The position numbers were made by a program, and so were the translations under genes. From an uncultured Candidatus Saccharibacteria bacterium (GTDB lineage Bacteria > Patescibacteriota > Minisyncoccia > Phycocordibacterales > UBA9973): DNA of 47,327 bases. The notes below the pieces were generated by a model. That model was not told the origin of the DNA and searched no databases. It worked only from the letters and a program-made list of their open reading frames with translations. Below are positions 10,220-45,458 of this stretch, in pieces (positions within the stretch are counted from its first letter, which is position 1; each line of letters begins with the position of its first letter). Location of the stretch: NCBI GenBank assembly GCA_964404925.1, contig CAYOLW010000001.1, positions 222,665-269,991 on the forward strand. The letters are read 5' to 3'.

Positions 10220-11986
10220 ATGTTAAACTCTCCTGTCGCTAAAATAAAGGAGAGACTTGGGATAGAAGAAGTAGTCTCTTCTTATATAAAACTAGAGAGA
10301 GCTGGCACAAATTTAAAGGCCAGGTGTCCTTTTCATAACGAAAAGACACCATCCTTTTTCTTGTCGCCAGAACGTGGTACATATTATTGTTTTGGCTGTG
10401 GGGCTAAAGGAGATATATTTGCTTTCGTGGAAGAGTTTGAAGGATTGGACTTTAAAGGCGCGCTCCGCATGTTGGCGGAGCGCGCCGGAGTCTCCTTGCA
10501 TGAATTAACAGAAAAAGATTCTGAAAATATTTCTGAAAAAGATAGACTCTATTCAGTTATGGAATCCGCTACTGTATTCTTTGAGAAGAATTTAAATTTA
10601 AACAAGGAGGCTCAATCCTATCTGAAGCAAAGGGGACTAGAAGACGGAACCATGCGTGCTTTCCGTTTAGGGTATGCTGATTCAAATTGGCATGATTTAT
10701 CTAATTTTCTACTAAGTAAAGGATTTACAGAACATGAAATTGAAAAAGCTGGTCTTAATAAAAGAGCAGAGAAAAGAGGTGGTGGTGAGGTTGTTTACGA
10801 TCGTTTTCGAGGAAGGATTATGTTTCCTTTAATGGATTCAAGCGGCAGGGTGATAGCTTTTTCTGGAAGATTATTTCCTGATTTACCAGAAGCAGCTAAA
10901 TATCTAAATTCTCCAGAAACGCCAATTTTTAAAAAATCCTCAGTCTTGTATGGTTTAGATAAAGCAAAACTAGCAATCCGTAAACACAATTTTTCTATTA
11001 TGGTTGAAGGTCAAATGGATCTACTTTTATCTCATCAGGCAGGAATGACTAATACTGTTGCTACTTCCGGTACTGCTTTTTCTGAAGAACTAGAAAGAGA
11101 AGAAGCTGTGTCTAATTTGGGTTTATTGCGTAGAATTTCCAGTAATGTTGTTTTTGCTTTTGATGGTGATAACGCTGGTATAAAGGCAATATTACGTGCT
11201 TCAAAGATTGCTTTATCTATTGGCATGGATGTAAAAGTAGCAGAATTACCTGAAGGGCAAGACCCAGCAGATATAATTGGGAAAAATGTCAAAGATGCTT
11301 GGAAGGCAATAATTCGTGAATGTGTGCCGTCGGTGGAATTTGTTTTAAATAAAATATTGGCTACAACAGATATTAATGACCGTAAACTAGGTAAAGAAAT
11401 AAAAGAAAAAGTTTTGCCCTACGTAGCCATACTGAGTAGTCACATGGACCAAGAGTTCTTTTTGCAAAAGATTAGTGGACGAACAGGATTATCGGTTGCA
11501 ACTTTAAAAGAAGATTTACTGAGCGTAGCCAAGACAATCCAAAACGAAAAAGAAACTATTGCAAGTATTGAAAAAGAGCAATTAGAGATTGTAAAAAAAG
11601 ATTATATCTTGAGGAGATTAATAGGTACTGTTTTCTGGCAATCCGGTATAGAATCAAAACTAATTGATAGTAAAGAATTGTTGAGAGAGATAGCCCAAGT
11701 ATTAAATACAAAAGTAGAAGTTCTGGAAGAAAAATATTCGCCAATGAAAGAAGACTTGATTTATGAGGCGGAAGTATTTTATAACGAAGGTATTGATTTA
11801 AATAAAGATATTAGAGAATTAGTTAGTAATTTAAAAGAGGAAAATTTAAAAGAAGAGCTTGCGCGTAAAATGCGCGAATTATATGAGGCCGAGGAGGCTG
11901 GGGACAATGAAAAGACCCAAGCAATTTTAAAAGAATGTCAGATTATTAATAATAAGATTCAAGATTTAAAAAATAGTCGAGCCTAA
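10220..11986 (+). CDS. dnaG: DNA primase
   Basis: It has the Zn-ribbon [30 protein letters not shown] and the TOPRIM block MVEGQMDLL...FDGDNAG. Confidence 0.93.
10457..10486. repeat. Perfect 12-bp GC-rich palindrome inside dnaG
   Basis: GGCGCGCTCCGC-ATGTTG-GCGGAGCGCGCC encodes ...[10 protein letters not shown]... using GC-rich codons that are atypical for this gene. Confidence 0.75.
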
Positions 11987-40338: not shown

Positions 40339-41133
40339 ATGAAGTTACGTAATTTACTTTTAATTTTAATTATTTTATTTGGGGAACTCGTAGGAGTGGC
40401 CTGGTATTTAGGCTTTGATAAAAGTAAATTAAGTGACTTGTCTTTTTACCTCGATTTAGCTAATCCTTCAGTTAAAGTTGTACGGGTAGTGGAAGGTATG
40501 CGTAAAGAAGAGATTGCCGAACAAGTAGCCAAGAAGCTCGGCTGGGGTGAAGAAGATAAAGAAAATTTCTTGAATGCACATATCGCTTTTAATACCCCGG
40601 ACTTAGAAGGCCGATATTTCCCCAAGACATATTTGATTGATATTAAGGATAATCCAAGTGATGTGTCGAACGCAATGGTGTCTGAATTTGAGAAGCAAAC
40701 AGAAAAGATTAAAAAGCCCACCAAATCGCTCGTCATGAATGAAGATACTATGATAAAAATTGCTTCAATTATTCAGCGTGAAGCTGCAGGTAAAAACGAC
40801 ATGCGTTTAATATCTGGGGTTATTTGGAATAGAATTTGGATCGGAATGAAACTCCAGATGGATGCGACACTTCAGTATGCCAAAGGTAGCGAAGAGGAAG
40901 GATGGTGGCCGAGAGTAGAATCAGGAGATAAAAATATTGAATCTTATTACAATACGTATATGTATAAGGGTCTGCCTCCGGGACCTATTGGTAACCCAGG
41001 GTTTGATGCATTAGAAGCGGCATACAACCCGCAGCCAACCACATGCCTGTTCTATATACACGACAAAAAACGCAAAATTCACTGCGCTGAAACATATGAA
41101 CAGCATAAAAAGAATATAGATAAGTATTTGTAG
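40339..41133 (+). CDS. mltG: Endolytic murein transglycosylase MltG (YceG-like)
   Basis: It has an N-terminal TM and ASIIQREA...DATLQYA...YNTYMYKGLPPGPIGNPG, typical of the YceG/MltG family. Confidence 0.85.
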   Translation: MKLRNLLLILIILFGELVGVAWYLGFDKSKLSDLSFYLDLANPSVKVVRVVEGMRKEEIAEQVAKKLGWGEEDKENFLNAHIAFNTPDLEGRYFPKTYLIDIKDNPSDVSNAMVSEFEKQTEKIKKPTKSLVMNEDTMIKIASIIQREAAGKNDMRLISGVIWNRIWIGMKLQMDATLQYAKGSEEEGWWPRVESGDKNIESYYNTYMYKGLPPGPIGNPGFDALEAAYNPQPTTCLFYIHDKKRKIHCAETYEQHKKNIDKYL

Positions 41134-41206
41134 TGGACCCTAGCGGATTCGAACCGCTGACCTCCTCATTGCAAATGAGGCGCTCTACCAACTAAGCTAA
41201 GGGCCC
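41134..41206 (-). tRNA. tRNA-Ala (UGC), no encoded CCA
   Basis: The reverse complement is GGGCCCUUAGCUUAGUUGGUAGAGCGCCUCAUUUGCAAUGAGGAGGUCAGCGGUUCGAAUCCGCUAGGGUCCA. The G3:U70 identity pair is present. Confidence 0.92.
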
Positions 41207-41284
41207 AATAGATGCCATTTTATATTATTTAAGAAATTTTGCAAACTTGAAAAATGCTATTTTTAGTATAAGCTATAAAACACT

Positions 41285-41355
41285 GGGCCCATAGTTAAGT
41301 GGTATAACGCGTCCATGGCATGGATGAGGCCGGAGTTCAATTCTCCGTGGGTCCA
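41285..41355 (+). tRNA. tRNA-Ala (GGC), no encoded CCA
   Basis: The sequence is GGGCCCAUAGUUAAGUGGUAUAACGCGUCCAUGGCAUGGAUGAGGCCGGAGUUCAAUUCUCCGUGGGUCCA. The anticodon loop is AUGGCAU and G3:U70 is present. Confidence 0.88.
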
Positions 41356-41361
41356 CATTTA

Positions 41362-42411
41362 ATGAATAAATACACAAACCGTAAACATAAATTCTATAAT
41401 ACCTCTGTCAAAGCTTGGCAGGGTATGTATGAGGCAATCCAGTCAGCTCGTATCTCTGTTTATATGGAAATGTATATTTTCCTTGATGATATCAAGGAAT
41501 TCGATTTCGTTTCTTTGCTGATCCAAAAAGCAAAAAGCGGTGTACAGGTAAAAATAATTCTAGACGCCTATGGTTCTATGGAATTAAACAGGAAATCTAT
41601 TGCCCAATTAAAAGAGGCTGGTATTGAGGTGTTTTTCATAAGTTATTTCTGGCATCGACTGCACAGGAAGATATTAATTATAGATGAGCAAACGGCATTT
41701 TTTGGAGGAGTGAATATTCATCATTCTGCAAAAGAGTGGCTGGATTTGATGATGGAAATTCGTGGCAAAATAGTAGAGAGGTTTGTTCGTATTTTTGCAC
41801 GAGATTACGTTTTGGCTGGGGGGAGTCGATCCTGTTTTGGTGGCACATAATAAAAAGGTTTTTTTACATAAAACTCGGACTTTTATCGTAGACCATTTGC
41901 CTATGATCAAAAAGTTCCGAATGAAAGATTTATATAAAGATCATATTGCCCTAGCAAAAAAAGAGATAACCCTAGTGACTCCGTATTTTGTGCCTAAAAG
42001 GTGGTTCGTTGCATTACTACACCAGGCTGTGTTGCGTGGGGTGGAGGTCAGCGTTATTATTCCCGAGAATACAGAACATGTACTCTTAACTAAGACTAAT
42101 TATTTTTATATGAATCGTGCTCAAAAGCTAGGAATAAAGTTTTACTTAGGTAACAGTATGAACCATGCAAAGATTATGCTAATAGATAGCGATGAAGCTT
42201 TAATTGGTTCACAAAATTTAGACTTTTGTCTTTTGAATTAAACTCAGAGATAGGTGTTTTCTTTAAGCAGAGGGGTGTTGTGACTAATTTATATAATATA
42301 ACCTCAAAATGGAAAAGCCAGTCAAAACCATTGATTGAATCCAAATACAGACTCAATTTTTTTGAAAGGATATTTGCCCATATTCTTAACGTCTTTGTGC
42401 AGATTTTGTAA
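41362..42411 (+). pseudogene. Cardiolipin synthase / phospholipase D family gene disrupted by two frameshifts
   Basis: HKD motif 1 (HRKILIIDEQTAFFGGVNI) is in frame 1 and HKD motif 2 (HAKIMLIDSDEALIGSQNLD) is in frame 2. The tail SFELNSEIGVFF is back in frame 1. The shifts are near the G6 run at 41818-41823 and at about 42224-42232. The start is set at ATG 41362 because the track start (41320) lies inside tRNA-Ala. Confidence 0.8.
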
Positions 42412-42471
42412 TTTGTCTTTTTATTATTTTCTGATAATATGTAAATGTTCTGTAAGGTTAGTTAAATACAT

Positions 42472-42512
42472 TCGGGAGTAGCTCTCCGCCGGCTGGCGGA
42501 GGTAGAGTGGTC
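42472..42512 (+). pseudogene. Duplicated 5' half of tRNA-Asn with a 16-nt hairpin replacing part of the D-loop
   Basis: TCGGGAGTAGCTC[TCCGCCGGCTGGCGGA]GGTAGAGTGGTC compares with TCGGGAGTAGCTCAGCGGTAGAGCGGTC at 42772-42799 in the intact gene. Confidence 0.75.
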
Positions 42513-42529
42513 TAATATATAATTCTTTT

Positions 42530-42781
42530 ATGAATTACTATGTTTATGCCATTTACAATCGTCAGCATGGTAAGATTTATATAGGCCAGACAGTCGATTT
42601 AGAAAAAAGACTATCTGAGCATAATAATAAAGTTTACAAAGGTTTTACGAGTCGTTTTAATGGTGAATGGATTATTATTCACCAAGAGATATACGAATCT
42701 AGAGAAAAAGCTTTGATTCGTGAAAAACAACTTAAATCTTTTAGAGGCAGGGAATACGTTCGAAAACAAATTCGGGAGTAG
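42530..42781 (+). CDS. Small GIY-YIG nuclease-family protein (UPF0213/YhbQ-like)
   Basis: It has YYVYAIYNRQHGKIYIGQTVDLEKRLSEHN (GIY-N10-YIG) and a conserved Arg/Glu region. TATAAT lies 6 nt upstream of the ATG. The stop codon TAG (42779-42781) lies inside tRNA-Asn. Confidence 0.8.
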   Translation: MNYYVYAIYNRQHGKIYIGQTVDLEKRLSEHNNKVYKGFTSRFNGEWIIIHQEIYESREKALIREKQLKSFRGREYVRKQIRE

Positions 42782-42843
42782 CTCAGCGGTAGAGCGGTCG
42801 CCTGTTAAGCGATTGGTCGTAGGTTCGATCCCTACCTCCCGAG
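42772..42843 (+). tRNA. tRNA-Asn (GUU), no encoded CCA
   Basis: The sequence is UCGGGAGUAGCUCAGCGGUAGAGCGGUCGCCUGUUAAGCGAUUGGUCGUAGGUUCGAUCCCUACCUCCCGAG. The anticodon loop is CUGUUAA. Confidence 0.9.
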
Positions 42844-42930
42844 CCCTTAAAATCACTTTGTAAATCAAGGTGATTTTTTGATACCCCTGTAGGGATTAGA
42901 ACTTTTTTGTAAAAATGTTAAGATAAAATT
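42841..42930 (+). repeat. Direct repeat copy 1: tRNA-Asn 3' tip, terminator hairpin and leaderless promoter
   Basis: 42841-42894 is identical to 45370-45423 (54/54), and similarity continues to the ATG. It contains the hairpin AATCAC-N15-GTGATT followed by T6, and TGtTAAGAT 6 nt before the ATG at 42931. Confidence 0.85.
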
Positions 42931-43380
42931 ATGGAAGATTTTCTCAAACAAGCAATAGAATTATCTAAAAAATCTGTGGAGCAAGGTGGTTTTCCTGTTG
43001 GTGCAATTATTGTTAAAGATGGGGTTGTCATTGCAGAAGGATTAAGTAATGGGAAAAATAATAAAGATGCCACTAGTCACGCTGAGATTGAAGCAATTAG
43101 AAATGCTTCTCAAAAATTAAATACTCGTGATTTATTTGATTGTGAAATATACTCTTCAATGGAACCTTGCCTGATGTGTTTTTCAGCATCATATTGGGCA
43201 AAAATAAAGAAGATTGTCTATGCTGTAGGGAAAGATAAACTTTCAAAACAGCACTACGAGGGGCTTCATTCTTTAGAAGAAATAAACTTAAAAAATAACA
43301 GAAAGATTGAAATTGTTCATATTAAAGAATTAGAGAATATTGCACTTTCGATTATAAAAGATTGGGAAAGTAAGATTTAG
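42931..43380 (+). CDS. CMP/dCMP-type zinc deaminase (TadA/guanine-deaminase-like)
   Basis: It has HAEIEAIRNA and SMEPCLMCFSA (the H-A-E ... P-C-x-x-C zinc motif). Confidence 0.8.
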   Translation: MEDFLKQAIELSKKSVEQGGFPVGAIIVKDGVVIAEGLSNGKNNKDATSHAEIEAIRNASQKLNTRDLFDCEIYSSMEPCLMCFSASYWAKIKKIVYAVGKDKLSKQHYEGLHSLEEINLKNNRKIEIVHIKELENIALSIIKDWESKI

Positions 43381-43531
43381 ACACAAATTGAAGTTTTAAA
43401 GAGGCTGGGATAGGTATGTGAGAAGGCATCATACTTTTGCATATAGGTTTTCCATTCGTAAGAAATTAGGTTTTCTATGGTGGATTTGAATAATTTGTTA
43501 GTTCTATAATCGGTCTGCTTTGGGAGCCAGC

Positions 43532-43603
43532 AAAAAACACTTTATAAATAAGGTGTTTTTTCTTACCTAGATAGATAGTTCGAACCTATGATATACTTTT
43601 TCT
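43532..43603 (+). repeat. Diverged third copy of the terminator-plus-promoter module
   Basis: AAAAACACTTTATAAATAAGGTGTTTTTT compares with AAAATCACTTTGTAAATCAAGGTGATTTTTT. It is preceded by GGGAGCC (compare CCGAGCC and CGGAGCC) and followed by TGaTATACT 6 nt before the ATG at 43604. Confidence 0.5.
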
Positions 43604-43927
43604 ATGCCAATGATAAACATAAAATATGACAGTGATAAGGTGAAAGATGAAGAAATTGTTCTTTTGTCAAAAGCTGTTCAAAAAATAGTTCAAGAAGCAA
43701 CAAAGATACCTGAAGTATTTGTATATGCAGACAGTCCTAAAATAAGAATTGATGTTGCTCCTATAGAGATTTTTGTTGAAATGAGTGCTAGTAAGGTAAC
43801 TGACAAGGAGAAACTTTTTCAAGAAATAAAGACACAATTATCAGAATGGAAAAAGGTAAGCAGTTTTAATAATCCTATAACTATTACTCTCACTCCAATA
43901 GACTGGATTTTCGAGGTTAATATATAA
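43604..43927 (+). CDS. Small hypothetical protein, possibly tautomerase-superfamily (N-terminal Met-Pro)
   Basis: It starts MPMINIKY..., and its size and beta-alpha-beta-like pattern fit that family. The assignment is weak. Confidence 0.3.
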   Translation: MPMINIKYDSDKVKDEEIVLLSKAVQKIVQEATKIPEVFVYADSPKIRIDVAPIEIFVEMSASKVTDKEKLFQEIKTQLSEWKKVSSFNNPITITLTPIDWIFEVNI

Positions 43928-43930
43928 ATT

Positions 43931-44542
43931 ATGAAGAAACAGATATTTTTAATTCACGGAGGAATGACTTTCAAGAACGAAAAGGATTATTTATATTTCT
44001 TAAAGAATAGAAATGTTTCAATAAAGAAAAGGGAGAGATGGCAGGATGCGTATTTAGAAAAAGAATTAGGTAAAACTTTTGAAATAATACGACCTCGTAT
44101 GCCATTACAAGATAATGCGAAGTATAGAGATTGGAAAATATGGTTTGAAAGATACATACCTTATCTAAGAGATAATGTAATTTTAATTGGTAGTTCATTG
44201 GGAGGTATATTCCTAGCTCAATACTTGTCTGAAAACAAGTTTCCAAAGAAGATACTATCTACATATTTGGTTTGTCCTCCGTATGATAATACTTGTATTG
44301 GGGAAGATTTAGTGGGTGGTTTTAAACTAAAACCAGATATTTCTTTGTTAGAGAAAAGTTCTAAAAACCTATACCTATTGTTCTCAAAAGACGATGACTG
44401 TGTCCCCGTTGACCACGCAGAAAAATATAGAAAGAAATTAAAAAGTCCGAACATTACTATCTATAAAAGTAAAAATGGACATTTTAATATATCCAAGTTT
44501 CCAGAGATAGTTAAGATGATTAAAAAAGACATTAAGAAATAA
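43931..44542 (+). CDS. Alpha/beta serine hydrolase, YdeN/RBBP9-like
   Basis: It has IFLIHGG..., the nucleophile elbow GSSLGG, and late D and H residues (KDDDCVP, NGHF). Confidence 0.6.
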   Translation: MKKQIFLIHGGMTFKNEKDYLYFLKNRNVSIKKRERWQDAYLEKELGKTFEIIRPRMPLQDNAKYRDWKIWFERYIPYLRDNVILIGSSLGGIFLAQYLSENKFPKKILSTYLVCPPYDNTCIGEDLVGGFKLKPDISLLEKSSKNLYLLFSKDDDCVPVDHAEKYRKKLKSPNITIYKSKNGHFNISKFPEIVKMIKKDIKK

Positions 44543-44550
44543 TATAAATT

Positions 44551-45339
44551 ATGGAAAAACTAGAATTAAAAAATAGAAAAGGTCAAAAGATAGTAGGTGT
44601 TTTAGAAAAACCTGATGGGGTTGTCAAAGGAACTTGTGTTATTGTTCACGGATATAGTGGATACAAAGAACAGGTTCATATGCAATATATTAAGAATGCT
44701 TTCTTGGATAACGGTTTCGTTACTTTTAATTTTGACACTACGAACACTTTTGGTGAAAGTGATGGAAAGTTTGAAGACGCTAGATTAGGTCTTCATTATG
44801 AAGATTTAGAAGATGTTACTAAATGGGTTCAACAACAAGATTGGTTTCAAAAACCACTAGCTTTGGTTGGTCATTCAATGGGAGGATATGCAGTTGCTAG
44901 GTATGCTGAAGATTATCCAAAAGAAGTTGATTTGTGTGCACCTATTGCCCCAGTAGTATCTGGAAAATTGTCGTTTGAAGGAAAGGATCAAGAAAAACTA
45001 AAGAAATGGAAAGAAACAGGATGGAGTATCAGAGAAAGTGTTGATGACAGAACAGGAGAAATTATAGTAAAAAGAAGCCCTTGGGGTGTTATGGAGGAAA
45101 GATTGGATCACGATTTATTACCTAATGCTAATAAACTAACAATGCCAATGTTTCTGTATATTGGAACCGAAGATACTTCTATTCTACCTGAGCATTTAGA
45201 AATACTTTATAAAGCTATTCCTGAAGGGAACAAAAAGATGGTATTGGCTGAAGGTGCACCTCATACATATAAAACAAAGGAAGATAACGAACATCTTTAT
45301 AATCATCTTTCTGAATGGATAAAATCAGTTTTGGCTTAA
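44551..45339 (+). CDS. Alpha/beta hydrolase
   Basis: It has VIVHGYSG, the nucleophile elbow GHSMGG, and late GTEDTS and APHTY. Confidence 0.7.
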   Translation: MEKLELKNRKGQKIVGVLEKPDGVVKGTCVIVHGYSGYKEQVHMQYIKNAFLDNGFVTFNFDTTNTFGESDGKFEDARLGLHYEDLEDVTKWVQQQDWFQKPLALVGHSMGGYAVARYAEDYPKEVDLCAPIAPVVSGKLSFEGKDQEKLKKWKETGWSIRESVDDRTGEIIVKRSPWGVMEERLDHDLLPNANKLTMPMFLYIGTEDTSILPEHLEILYKAIPEGNKKMVLAEGAPHTYKTKEDNEHLYNHLSEWIKSVLA

Positions 45340-45369
45340 GACAGTTCGTCGAACATCGTCCCAAGTTCG

Positions 45370-45458
45370 GAGCCCTTAAAATCACTTTGTAAATCAAGGT
45401 GATTTTTTGATACCCCTGTAGGGTTCAGAACTTTTTTAAAAAATGTTAATATTAGTTT
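45370..45458 (+). repeat. Direct repeat copy 2 (terminator plus leaderless promoter)
   Basis: See 42841..42930. It is preceded by a weak tRNA-3'-end-like stretch, AGTTCGTCGAACATCGTCCCAAGTTCGGAGCCC. TGtTAATAT lies 6 nt before the ATG at 45459. Confidence 0.85.

Follow-up and report, generated by a model that had tools for sequence, protein, structure and literature searches.

How can a nuclease gene settle across the 5' end of an essential tRNA gene while that gene stays intact? This question is raised by a locus in a 47,327-nucleotide (nt) stretch of DNA from an uncultured Candidatus Saccharibacteria bacterium (contig CAYOLW010000001.1; hereafter the window, G+C content 39%), in which an open reading frame (ORF) for a GIY-YIG nuclease of 83 amino acids (aa) lies between a duplicated, palindrome-bearing 5' half of tRNA-Asn and the complete tRNA-Asn gene. 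The same architecture is conserved in more than 70 independent loci, where it is accompanied by presence/absence polymorphism, a series of decaying units, tandem arrays and mosaic sequences. We propose, at a probability of roughly two in three, that a selfish, free-standing, homing-endonuclease-like GIY-YIG cassette splits the 5' half of tRNA-Asn(GUU) and regenerates the gene. Literature searches returned no description of a nuclease cassette with a duplicated tRNA 5' half; it is the arrangement that appears undescribed, the strategy itself being known from the free-standing endonuclease genes (mORFs) of fungal mitochondria.

The cassette is delimited by the 15-mer ATTCGGGAGTAGCTC, which occurs in two exact copies in the window, at 42470 and 42770, and no further copy with up to two mismatches was found in the 47 kb (chance expectation 0.08). 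At 90% identity the repeat grows to 21 nt (42464–42484 and 42764–42784) and takes in about 8 nt of the 5' leader. A canonical tRNA-Asn(GTT) opens with the downstream copy, placed at 42771–42846 by ARAGORN and at 42772–42843 by Rfam (70.6 bits), and since nt 1 of the tRNA is 42772, the first two bases of the repeat (AT) belong to the leader. The upstream copy continues as a pseudo-half, termed E1*, of which part A comprises the acceptor 5' strand, U8, A9 and the D-stem 5' strand; behind the palindrome, GGTAGAGtGGTC matches tRNA nt 17–28 with one change. The leader upstream of E1* is homologous to leaders that directly abut the tRNA in empty loci (e.g. L151, L090/L115, L100), so that the pseudo-half stands where the 5' end of the gene used to be, native promoter and leader now precede E1* instead of the tRNA, and the intact tRNA lies behind the ORF. 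The last codons of the ORF, ATT CGG GAG TAG, overlap tRNA nt 1–10. These elements, the repeated 15-mer with its tRNA-Asn half, the hairpin, TATAAT-N6-ATG and the 83-aa GIY-YIG ORF, had been pointed out in an earlier note on this DNA, and all of them were recovered (Table 1).

The TATAAT-N6-ATG spacing suggests a leaderless mRNA for the nuclease ORF, and the palindrome ends 17 nt before TATAAT, i.e. where a -35 element would be. A consensus promoter and terminator scan called neither the native promoter nor TATAAT-N6-ATG, because a -35 match is missing, and gives no support either way. No other ORF lies inside the 300-nt unit, and Rfam, applied to 41000–43400 with E up to 1, reported tRNAs only and nothing over E1* or the hairpin. 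Since the sequence recurs unchanged in an independent assembly (Logan contig L001), the arrangement is not an assembly artefact. Scans with 15-mers of the tRNA 3' end (up to three mismatches) found no copy elsewhere in the window, and a scan for a pseudo-3' half (E2*) found none beside the window tRNA; a more diverged tRNA 3'-end-like stub lies at ~45.33 kb. E2* as a general partner of E1* was rejected, as it is present in only 7 of 58 loci scanned, plus L072 by eye.

A scan of one genome per species gave 454 loci, the best 80 of them all from Patescibacteria; family counts given here cover 76 loci, that is 75 related ones and the window's own. Taxon labels of many records are unreliable (e.g. 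'uncultured Gammaproteobacteria'). All homologues of the window come from the ultra-small Patescibacteria (the Candidate Phyla Radiation, CPR), and at E<=1e-10 the family profile recovers about 780 clusters defined at 50% identity. At 84% identity, P0002 (L002/L003) is the closest relative and shows the same pseudo-half, hairpin, ORF and tRNA-Asn next to different neighbouring genes, and at 65% identity L004 and L005 retain the arrangement with a pseudo-half that follows their own, different tRNA-Asn sequence. This co-variation is strict: across the 38 class-1 loci, with 13 acceptor variants, an average of 0.13 mismatches separates the 13 nt in front of the palindrome from the cognate tRNA, compared to 2.16 for non-cognate tRNAs, and none of 10,000 permutations was as good. 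Part A is identical to the locus' own tRNA in 35 of these 38 loci, the window included, while E1* and the genuine 5' half (E1) diverge in L077, L072, L043 and L044. Almost all family members are attached to tRNA-Asn with a duplicated half upstream, a point that the earlier note had proposed to check in other copies of this nuclease.

Further details of the architecture generalise to different degrees. Among the 76 ORFs, 55 end in AT-T, six acceptor bases and TAG, so that the stop is U8-A9-G10 of tRNA-Asn or of a tRNA-Asn-like copy; in the majority of these ARAGORN has tRNA-Asn begin 9 nt ahead of the ORF end, and the remainder mostly terminate in a further pseudo-half or in a tRNA-Asn that contains an intron. 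The palindrome is located 30–50 nt 5' of the ATG in 74 of 76 loci. Behind it, E1* tracks the local tRNA to nt 28–32 and in several loci to nt 35–40, in which case the -10 box or the ATG itself lies in the former anticodon loop. The break of the pseudo-half into a promoter, noted earlier, thus holds for the window, whereas in relatives the half runs on to the anticodon loop (nt 28–40). Likewise, the TATAAT promoter assigned to the ORF is present in the window, but a TATAAT-like -10 box 5–10 nt 5' of the ATG is found in only 20 of 74 loci. Many of the loci lacking it probably use the native tRNA promoter upstream of E1*, and the palindrome then lies in the 5' untranslated region (UTR). In a second class (9 loci) the palindrome follows nt 8, and taken together its position in E1* varies (after nt 3, 8, 9, 10, 13/14 or 21), with nested double palindromes also seen. 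Tandem cassette units occur in L007, L030 and L075. Two loci are composite: in L072 an older tRNA-Asn is split into a 5' (E1*) and a 3' (E2*) piece around the ORF, both carrying the palindrome, in the D or T loop, next to a different intact tRNA-Asn, and in L077 E1* has the acceptor of another lineage, differing from E1. Their sequences suggest a foreign origin of the cassette in some loci.

Evidence for insertion comes from alleles without the cassette. A metagenome scan with the exact tRNA-Asn core (nt 8–65) returned 80 loci, and the 66 with at least 350 nt upstream were classified. Empty sites, in which native promoter and leader abut the tRNA, are the most frequent (~38 of 66), followed by non-coding inserts that adjoin a remaining 10-nt stub of the tRNA's 5' end (~20), ORF-less remnants of pseudo-half and hairpin (~6), a distant GIY-YIG family (3) and this nuclease family (2). 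Filled and empty loci alike were recovered from the Hainich H41/H43 groundwater data. The empty locus L151 is the counterpart of L002: the alignment contains one clean 302-nt gap equal to the cassette, flanked by a 70-nt leader match and a 75-nt tRNA match, both 100% identical, with syntenic downstream genes at 81–87% identity. This empty tRNA-Asn site, of the kind the earlier note had asked for, supports its claim that the 300-nt unit inserted into, or recombined at, the 5' half and regenerated the gene. Units lacking the ORF were found in L004, L095/L154, L138 and L159, of which L095/L154 retain the last ORF bases, and in L086 and L093 the hairpin itself is decaying. Judged by these traces, L095/L154, L138, L159, L093 and L086 are deletion remnants of the cassette and not an unrelated duplication; the case that would have spoken for the latter, relatives having acquired the half independently of the gene, was not encountered among them.

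The ORF product matches PF01541 GIY-YIG over residues 2–70 (57.7 bits against a cutoff of 22.6, E=1.5e-15), and Y6, Y17, R27, H31 and E65 are invariant in 33 family members, the first four aligning with I-TevI Y6, Y17, R27 and H31. Family members mostly have 81–90 aa, and their C-termini vary (IPR, IPG, IPE, IRE and others) because the ORF reads into the tRNA acceptor bases up to the U8-A9-G10 stop. The window protein consists of the catalytic domain only, without a DNA-binding module for a long target as in I-TevI, Seg proteins and I-BmoI. Its AlphaFold model (predicted local distance difference test, pLDDT, 96.4) comprises three strands plus helices and no extra RNA-binding module; Foldseek matched it to UPF0213, Slx1, UvrC-N and I-TevI. 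Closest are UPF0213 BH0048 and the Slx1 nuclease domain (TMq 0.71, root-mean-square deviation (rmsd) 2.1 Å), with I-TevI farther away (TMq 0.47); 6SEH superimposes at an rmsd of 2.1 Å over 72 residues with 30% identity, and 1ZG2 matches at E=3e-5. Among solved structures, sequence comparison places the I-TevI catalytic domain (PDB 1MK0/1LN0) and UPF0213 proteins nearest, with E-values of only 1e-3 for the latter, so that UPF0213 proper is not established as its family. The best NCBIfam match is 'group I intron endonuclease', below its cutoff, and PHROGs returned generic homing-endonuclease matches.

For the window ORF and that of L002, the ratio of non-synonymous to synonymous divergence (dN/dS) is 0.13; by this measure the nuclease ORF is under purifying selection and its protein functional. 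Synonymous divergence is distributed unevenly, with dS of 1.68 in codons 1–55 and 0.18 in codons 56–83, which adjoin the identical tRNA. A second close pair shows the same mosaic, a third the reverse pattern, and more distant pairs lack synonymous constraint in the 3' third. The low dS in the 3' part is better read as a recombination tract than as constraint at the RNA level. Nucleotide-level constraint on the last third of the ORF was rejected, synonymous divergence being normal there in most pairs.

The hairpin, which the earlier note had taken as a disruption of the pseudo-half, does sit in the D-loop position, but it is more than that: no other part of the cassette is as well conserved. 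Its stem TCCGCC/GGCGGA is identical in 71 of 74 related loci and invariant across proteins that are only 55–65% identical, while the loop varies (AGCT, AGCC, GGCT, AACT, AGTT, GGTT). An invariant stem around a free 4-nt centre indicates sequence-specific recognition of the palindrome. The symmetry would fit a dimer on DNA, and an RNA hairpin may also be the recognised form; G·U-compatible and disruptive stem substitutions are similar in number and do not separate RNA hairpin from DNA site. In two loci of the 'KSGNGR' nuclease subfamily the palindrome is TCCGCT-GTAC-AGCGGA, a symmetric (compensatory) change, and a distant GIY-YIG family 2 (31–33% identity) has the same layout with quite different GC palindromes (CCCGCC…GGCGGG, CCTGCC…GGCAGG). 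Palindrome type therefore follows nuclease type, an outcome that physical linkage alone could also yield. A scan of viral contigs for the hairpin plus GGTAGAGC gave 0 matches, and a phage origin is consequently not backed by evidence.

Further copies of the palindrome lie in loops of group I introns, in pseudo-3' halves and, reading in frame, within fmt coding sequence, all within ~1.5 kb of the nuclease gene. The fmt copy, at L004 568–583 (…EIRQLADDE…), reproduces all 16 nt of the palindrome and lies 1.4 kb away from the nuclease gene. The window itself has the palindrome only once, apart from a near-copy with one mismatch at 10464–10479; this near-copy is at the centre of a longer GC-rich palindrome (28 nt) in a primase-like ORF. 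Both coding copies consist of GC-rich codons that look atypical for these AT-rich genomes.

We propose a model in which the original 5' portion of tRNA-Asn, on its native promoter and leader, was stranded upstream as E1* with the palindrome in its D arm. The cassette would supply the -10 box, the 83-aa nuclease ORF and, at its 3' side, a replacement copy of the leader end and tRNA nt 1 to ~30. This copy would join the rest of the gene to give an intact tRNA, now transcribed behind an ORF that reads on to the UAG at U8-A9-G10. The nuclease would break empty tRNA-Asn genes, repair from the filled allele would copy the cassette (homing), and the spare 5' half carried along would make insertion harmless to the host's tRNA-Asn gene. 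The palindrome could be the binding site of the nuclease itself, an operator over the -35 position or in the 5' UTR that mediates autorepression; alternatively or additionally, it could break up the direct repeat and slow its deletion. E1* may be kept identical to the tRNA by gene conversion, or only compatible insertions may survive. The suggestion made earlier, that this nuclease family is itself mobile with tRNA-gene specificity, is thus backed in its association with tRNA-Asn and in the polymorphism of the site, while nuclease activity, cleavage site and nuclease-driven mobility are what we infer from them.

Several observations weigh against this proposal. The protein is a bare 83-aa catalytic domain, whose closest folds are UPF0213 and the structure-specific nuclease Slx1, not I-TevI. 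The filled allele retains an intact tRNA 5' half, so that immunity to self-cleavage is unaccounted for. Identity of E1* and E1 in deeply diverged lineages would not be a product of simple homing and would require ongoing conversion or selection, and the patchy presence could come from one ancient insertion followed by many precise losses via the direct repeat. Moreover, the variable hairpin position in E1* and the copies in intron loops, pseudo-3' halves and one coding sequence are not predicted by a pure operator model.

Comparison with known systems places the cassette closest to the mORFs, free-standing LAGLIDADG or GIY-YIG endonuclease genes in fungal mitochondrial atp6, atp9, cox2 and nad3, which carry a replacement C-terminus of the target gene and leave the native one behind (Allomyces atp6; Glomus; PMC3630166). 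Both are intronless endonuclease ORFs within a host gene, whose carried duplicate regenerates a hybrid gene next to the native fragment, both vary in presence among relatives, and for the cassette, too, a foreign origin is suggested in some cases. At the window locus, a flanking duplicate, a regenerated gene and a displaced native fragment are all present. In contrast to mORFs, the cassette resides in bacteria (Patescibacteria) and in a tRNA gene, duplicates the 5' part including the leader end rather than the 3' part, encodes a bare 83-aa nuclease whose stop lies inside the regenerated tRNA, carries a conserved GC palindrome in the displaced fragment, and its displaced and replacement copies are usually identical.

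Phage T4 encodes free-standing GIY-YIG enzymes, the Seg proteins (with SegB in the tRNA gene cluster), and the intron-encoded I-TevI, all of 200–250 aa, linker and DNA-binding domain included; I-TevI is in addition known to repress its own promoter by binding to an operator there. Common to these genes and the cassette are the GIY-YIG core with Tyr, Tyr, Arg, His and Glu, the location of a selfish gene beside or within a conserved RNA or protein gene, and co-conversion or mosaicism of the flanks, and presence or absence at an identical target site, as in free-standing homing genes, is what L151 and L002 display. The T4 genes, however, do not duplicate part of their target, and the cassette nuclease lacks linker and DNA-binding domain and is nearer in fold to UPF0213/Slx1 than to I-TevI. 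With UPF0213 (YhbQ, BH0048, EF2693) and the Slx1 URI domain it agrees in size, single-domain architecture and fold. Slx1 cuts branched and stem-loop DNA, a substrate preference that fits a link between the cassette nuclease and the palindrome; to our knowledge, no tRNA-gene linkage, duplicated tRNA half or conserved palindrome has been reported for UPF0213 or Slx1. Integrative elements that target tRNA genes (phages, integrative and conjugative elements, genomic islands) resemble the cassette in that a carried partial tRNA copy regenerates the gene and a partial duplicate is left, but they use a tyrosine or serine integrase, span kilobases and typically duplicate the 3' end, compared to no integrase, 300 nt and the 5' half here. 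Mobile GC-rich palindromes in AT-rich genomes are known as the GC clusters of yeast mitochondria and the Rickettsia palindromic elements. The cassette palindrome is likewise short and GC-rich and recurs in loops of structured RNA and in frame in coding sequence; unlike those elements, it has 16 nt, stays within ~1.5 kb of the nuclease gene and is not spread genome-wide, with one copy in the 47-kb window.

The alternative that survives best, which we nevertheless consider unlikely, is a domesticated, vertically inherited operon, in which a host repair nuclease of the UPF0213/Slx1 kind is co-transcribed with tRNA-Asn and E1* acts as a cis-regulatory RNA. Acceptor and anticodon-stem strands of E1* would compete with the genuine 5' half for the tRNA 3' half, and this competition would set the balance between tRNA maturation and translation, with RNase P cleavage removing the stop codon of the ORF. 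Tracking of the local tRNA over the whole length of E1*, a fold nearest UPF0213/Slx1 and purifying selection on the protein all agree with this alternative, and in the minimum free energy fold of the complete transcript E1* is paired with the acceptor 3' strand of the tRNA, which is expected of any duplicate and therefore not decisive. Where E1* differs from E1 by one acceptor-stem base (L043, L044, L036), the changes are wobble-compatible with the 3' strand; with four informative loci, however, this test of pairing between E1* and the 3' half (E2) is not significant (p about 0.125). The fold of leader plus E1* is likewise not significant (z = -0.5), the hairpin being its only robust element, and provides no evidence of a larger structured RNA. 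An intact cassette in only ~8% of the identical-core loci, many of which are empty or decayed, is unlike a housekeeping function, and tandem arrays, ORF-less units and the misfit of E1* to the adjacent tRNA in L077 and L072 likewise argue against an operon.

Improbable as well, and concerned with origin rather than present behaviour, is the view of the locus as the frozen scar of an intron-borne endonuclease: the GIY-YIG gene would once have resided in a group I intron in the tRNA-Asn anticodon loop, and after loss of the ribozyme a duplication of the 5' exon would have rescued the tRNA. E1* reaches U35-A37 in L012, L013, L027, L048, L069 and L150, precisely the position of group I introns (RF00028) in the tRNA-Asn of L008, L022, L036, L043, L047 and L067, and the sub-cutoff 'group I intron endonuclease' match points the same way. 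At the window locus, however, no ribozyme core surrounds the ORF, nor is there ribozyme-like sequence or room for it, as the gap from E1* to the ATG is only ~16 nt, ORF and tRNA overlap and Rfam detects tRNAs only. Besides, one and the same gene can hold both the cassette and bona fide introns, and purifying selection, empty alleles, tandem arrays and mosaics bespeak continuing dynamics instead of a frozen state. As a statement on origin, such an ancestry would be compatible with a homing cassette.

A nuclease guided by RNA or by structure is more doubtful still. Here the transcript of leader and E1* would be the guide and the hairpin a protein-binding handle, with the tRNA-derived bases flanking the hairpin pairing with the empty tRNA-Asn gene, in analogy to ωRNA-guided homing by TnpB/IscB. 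The attraction of this scheme is that a variable, target-matching segment lies beside an invariant hairpin whose sequence changes with the nuclease subfamily, that so small a protein could not recognise a long DNA target on its own, and that leader and uninterrupted 5' half are contiguous only in empty alleles, which would allow discrimination of self from non-self. Set against this, a guide of fixed geometry is hard to square with the variable hairpin position, the co-variation has a simpler explanation in linkage and gene conversion, the model of the protein shows no extra RNA-binding module, and we know of no RNA-guided GIY-YIG enzyme. That a two-component, guide-bearing system would endow a domain-only nuclease with long-target specificity and automatic self/non-self discrimination is accordingly a long shot; if true, it would make this GIY-YIG nuclease the first with an RNA guide and the system a minimal counterpart of TnpB/IscB-ωRNA homing. 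Finally, a local duplication by chance, an artefact of assembly and an island brought in by an integrase, for which it could be said that tRNA genes are common integration sites, that repeats confuse assemblers and that several related contigs end or have N-gaps at this locus, are refuted by the repeat statistics (chance expectation 0.08), by the same architecture in more than 70 independent assemblies, by the empty-filled comparison of L151 and L002, and by a duplicate that is the 5' half and not the 3' end, with no integrase present and no copy of the tRNA 3'-end 15-mers, at up to three mismatches, elsewhere in the window.

If the homing-like reading holds, the cassette belongs to an undescribed class of selfish element that is widespread in Patescibacteria and involves at least two nuclease families, and an essential tRNA gene would be colonised without intron or integrase by means of a spare 5' half, extending the mORF strategy to bacterial tRNA genes. 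This would also account for tRNA-Asn genes that frequently go undetected or appear in fragments, for contig breaks at the locus and for the abundance of small 'GIY-YIG family proteins' in the annotations of these genomes. An 83-aa nuclease, a 16-nt palindrome and a 72-nt target would constitute a compact experimental system for how a domain-only GIY-YIG enzyme gains specificity. Since the stop of the ORF lies inside the tRNA, RNase P cleavage would produce a non-stop mRNA, and together with the strict co-variation of E1* and tRNA this raises a possible coupling of tRNA processing, translation termination and nuclease dosage. The locus should thus be of interest to the mobile-element, tRNA-gene and CPR genomics fields.

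Table 1. Coordinates of features at the tRNA-Asn locus; positions refer to the window unless a related locus is named.
Feature	Location	Strand	Remarks
Native tRNA-Asn promoter and leader	42410..42471	+	T-rich block; TCTGATAATAT -10-like element at 42430-42440; leader end AAATACAT
E1* part A, displaced copy of tRNA-Asn nt 1-13, TCGGGAGTAGCTC	42472..42484	+	13/13 identical to 42772-42784
16-nt GC palindrome/hairpin TCCGCC-GGCT-GGCGGA (TCCGCCGGCTGGCGGA)	42485..42500	+	In place of D-loop AGC
E1* part B, copy of tRNA nt 17-29 (GGTAGAGtGGTCt)	42501..42513	+	Decays toward former anticodon loop
TATAAT -10 box	42518..42523	+	6 nt 5' of ATG at 42530; read directly from sequence
GIY-YIG nuclease ORF, 83 aa, single domain	42530..42781	+	Stop TAG 42779-42781 = tRNA U8-A9-G10
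Downstream direct-repeat copy (leader-like AAACAAAT + tRNA nt 1-13)	42764..42784	+	ORF 3' end and regenerated tRNA 5' end
Intact tRNA-Asn(GUU), CCA tail not encoded	42772..42843	+	ARAGORN; Rfam RF00005, 70.6 bits
Dispersed repeat copies	42841-42925; 45344-45447; L002 3209-3308		
Group I introns (RF00028)	L008 1761-2022; L022 1063-1334; L036 1761-2011; L043 1785-2077; L047 2132-2376; L067 2066-2342		

Other inserts share the tRNA-Asn gene with the cassette. The second GIY-YIG family, recognised by a C-terminal KSGAGR/KSCAGR motif (31–33% identity; L089, L103, L150, and also L007 1190–1460), sits likewise between native leader plus pseudo-half and tRNA-Asn, and its palindromes differ and are longer; L104 holds an ORF-less remnant of this family. 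Group I introns (RF00028, 51–84 bits) occupy the anticodon loop after U35 in the same genes as the GIY-YIG cassette. A further ORF (MPDNRKYADR…) precedes some of them, and ARAGORN misses these tRNAs. Rfam reported only tRNAs and group I introns in the related loci, and that CPR tRNAs can carry group I introns has been noted in one paper.

The non-coding inserts are of two kinds, both hairpin-rich, ~120–180 nt long and located between a 10–12-nt tRNA-Asn 5' stub at the native promoter and the intact tRNA; together they occur in roughly a quarter of the identical-core loci. The first kind (L102, L108, L111, L118, L129, L135, L140, L149) lies ~135 nt upstream of tRNA-Asn and ends in CCGCTGAGCTACC, antisense to tRNA nt 6–18, and the second was found in L124, L131, L133, L153, L162 and L122. 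Rfam gave no match to these inserts, which may be ORF-less relatives of the cassette or structured RNAs of a new kind.

Downstream of the tRNA-Asn 3' end, two further elements were observed. The ~85 nt that directly follow it in the window are a dispersed repeat, GAGCC-CTTAAAATCACTTTGTAAATCAAGGTGATTTTTTGATACCCCTGTAGGGaTtAGAACTTTT, with a terminator-like hairpin and a second small hairpin. A copy ~95% identical lies 2.5 kb downstream, and this copy and the one in L002 are each preceded by a diverged tRNA-3'-end-like stub (…GTTCGGAGCC). The four small genes between the two window copies (42931–45339) could represent a small island, or the repeat a mobile terminator module. In L002 (2365–2537) as well as in L101, L154, L086, L138 and L159, a conserved non-coding element of ~160–190 nt lies between the tRNA-Asn 3' end and E2*; in it, a terminator-like hairpin is accompanied by the acceptor 3' strand in antisense (GGCTCGGGAG) and by the motif GGTATACTG…CCTGTAAGG, and Rfam returned no match to the element.

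Just upstream of the tRNA-Asn promoter, the window contains a phospholipase D (PLD)-like gene of the cardiolipin-synthase type (41320–42241) that is split into two overlapping frames, 41320–41850 and 41783–42241, with PLDc_2 in each. Since it is split in the independent contig L001 too, we regard it as a real frameshift or pseudogene and not as a sequencing error. At 41133–41356, tRNA-Ala TGC (-) and GGC (+) face away from each other, 78 nt apart; as many relatives have tRNA-Ala(TGC) immediately 5' of tRNA-Asn and in the same orientation, the tRNA cluster has been rearranged in the window.

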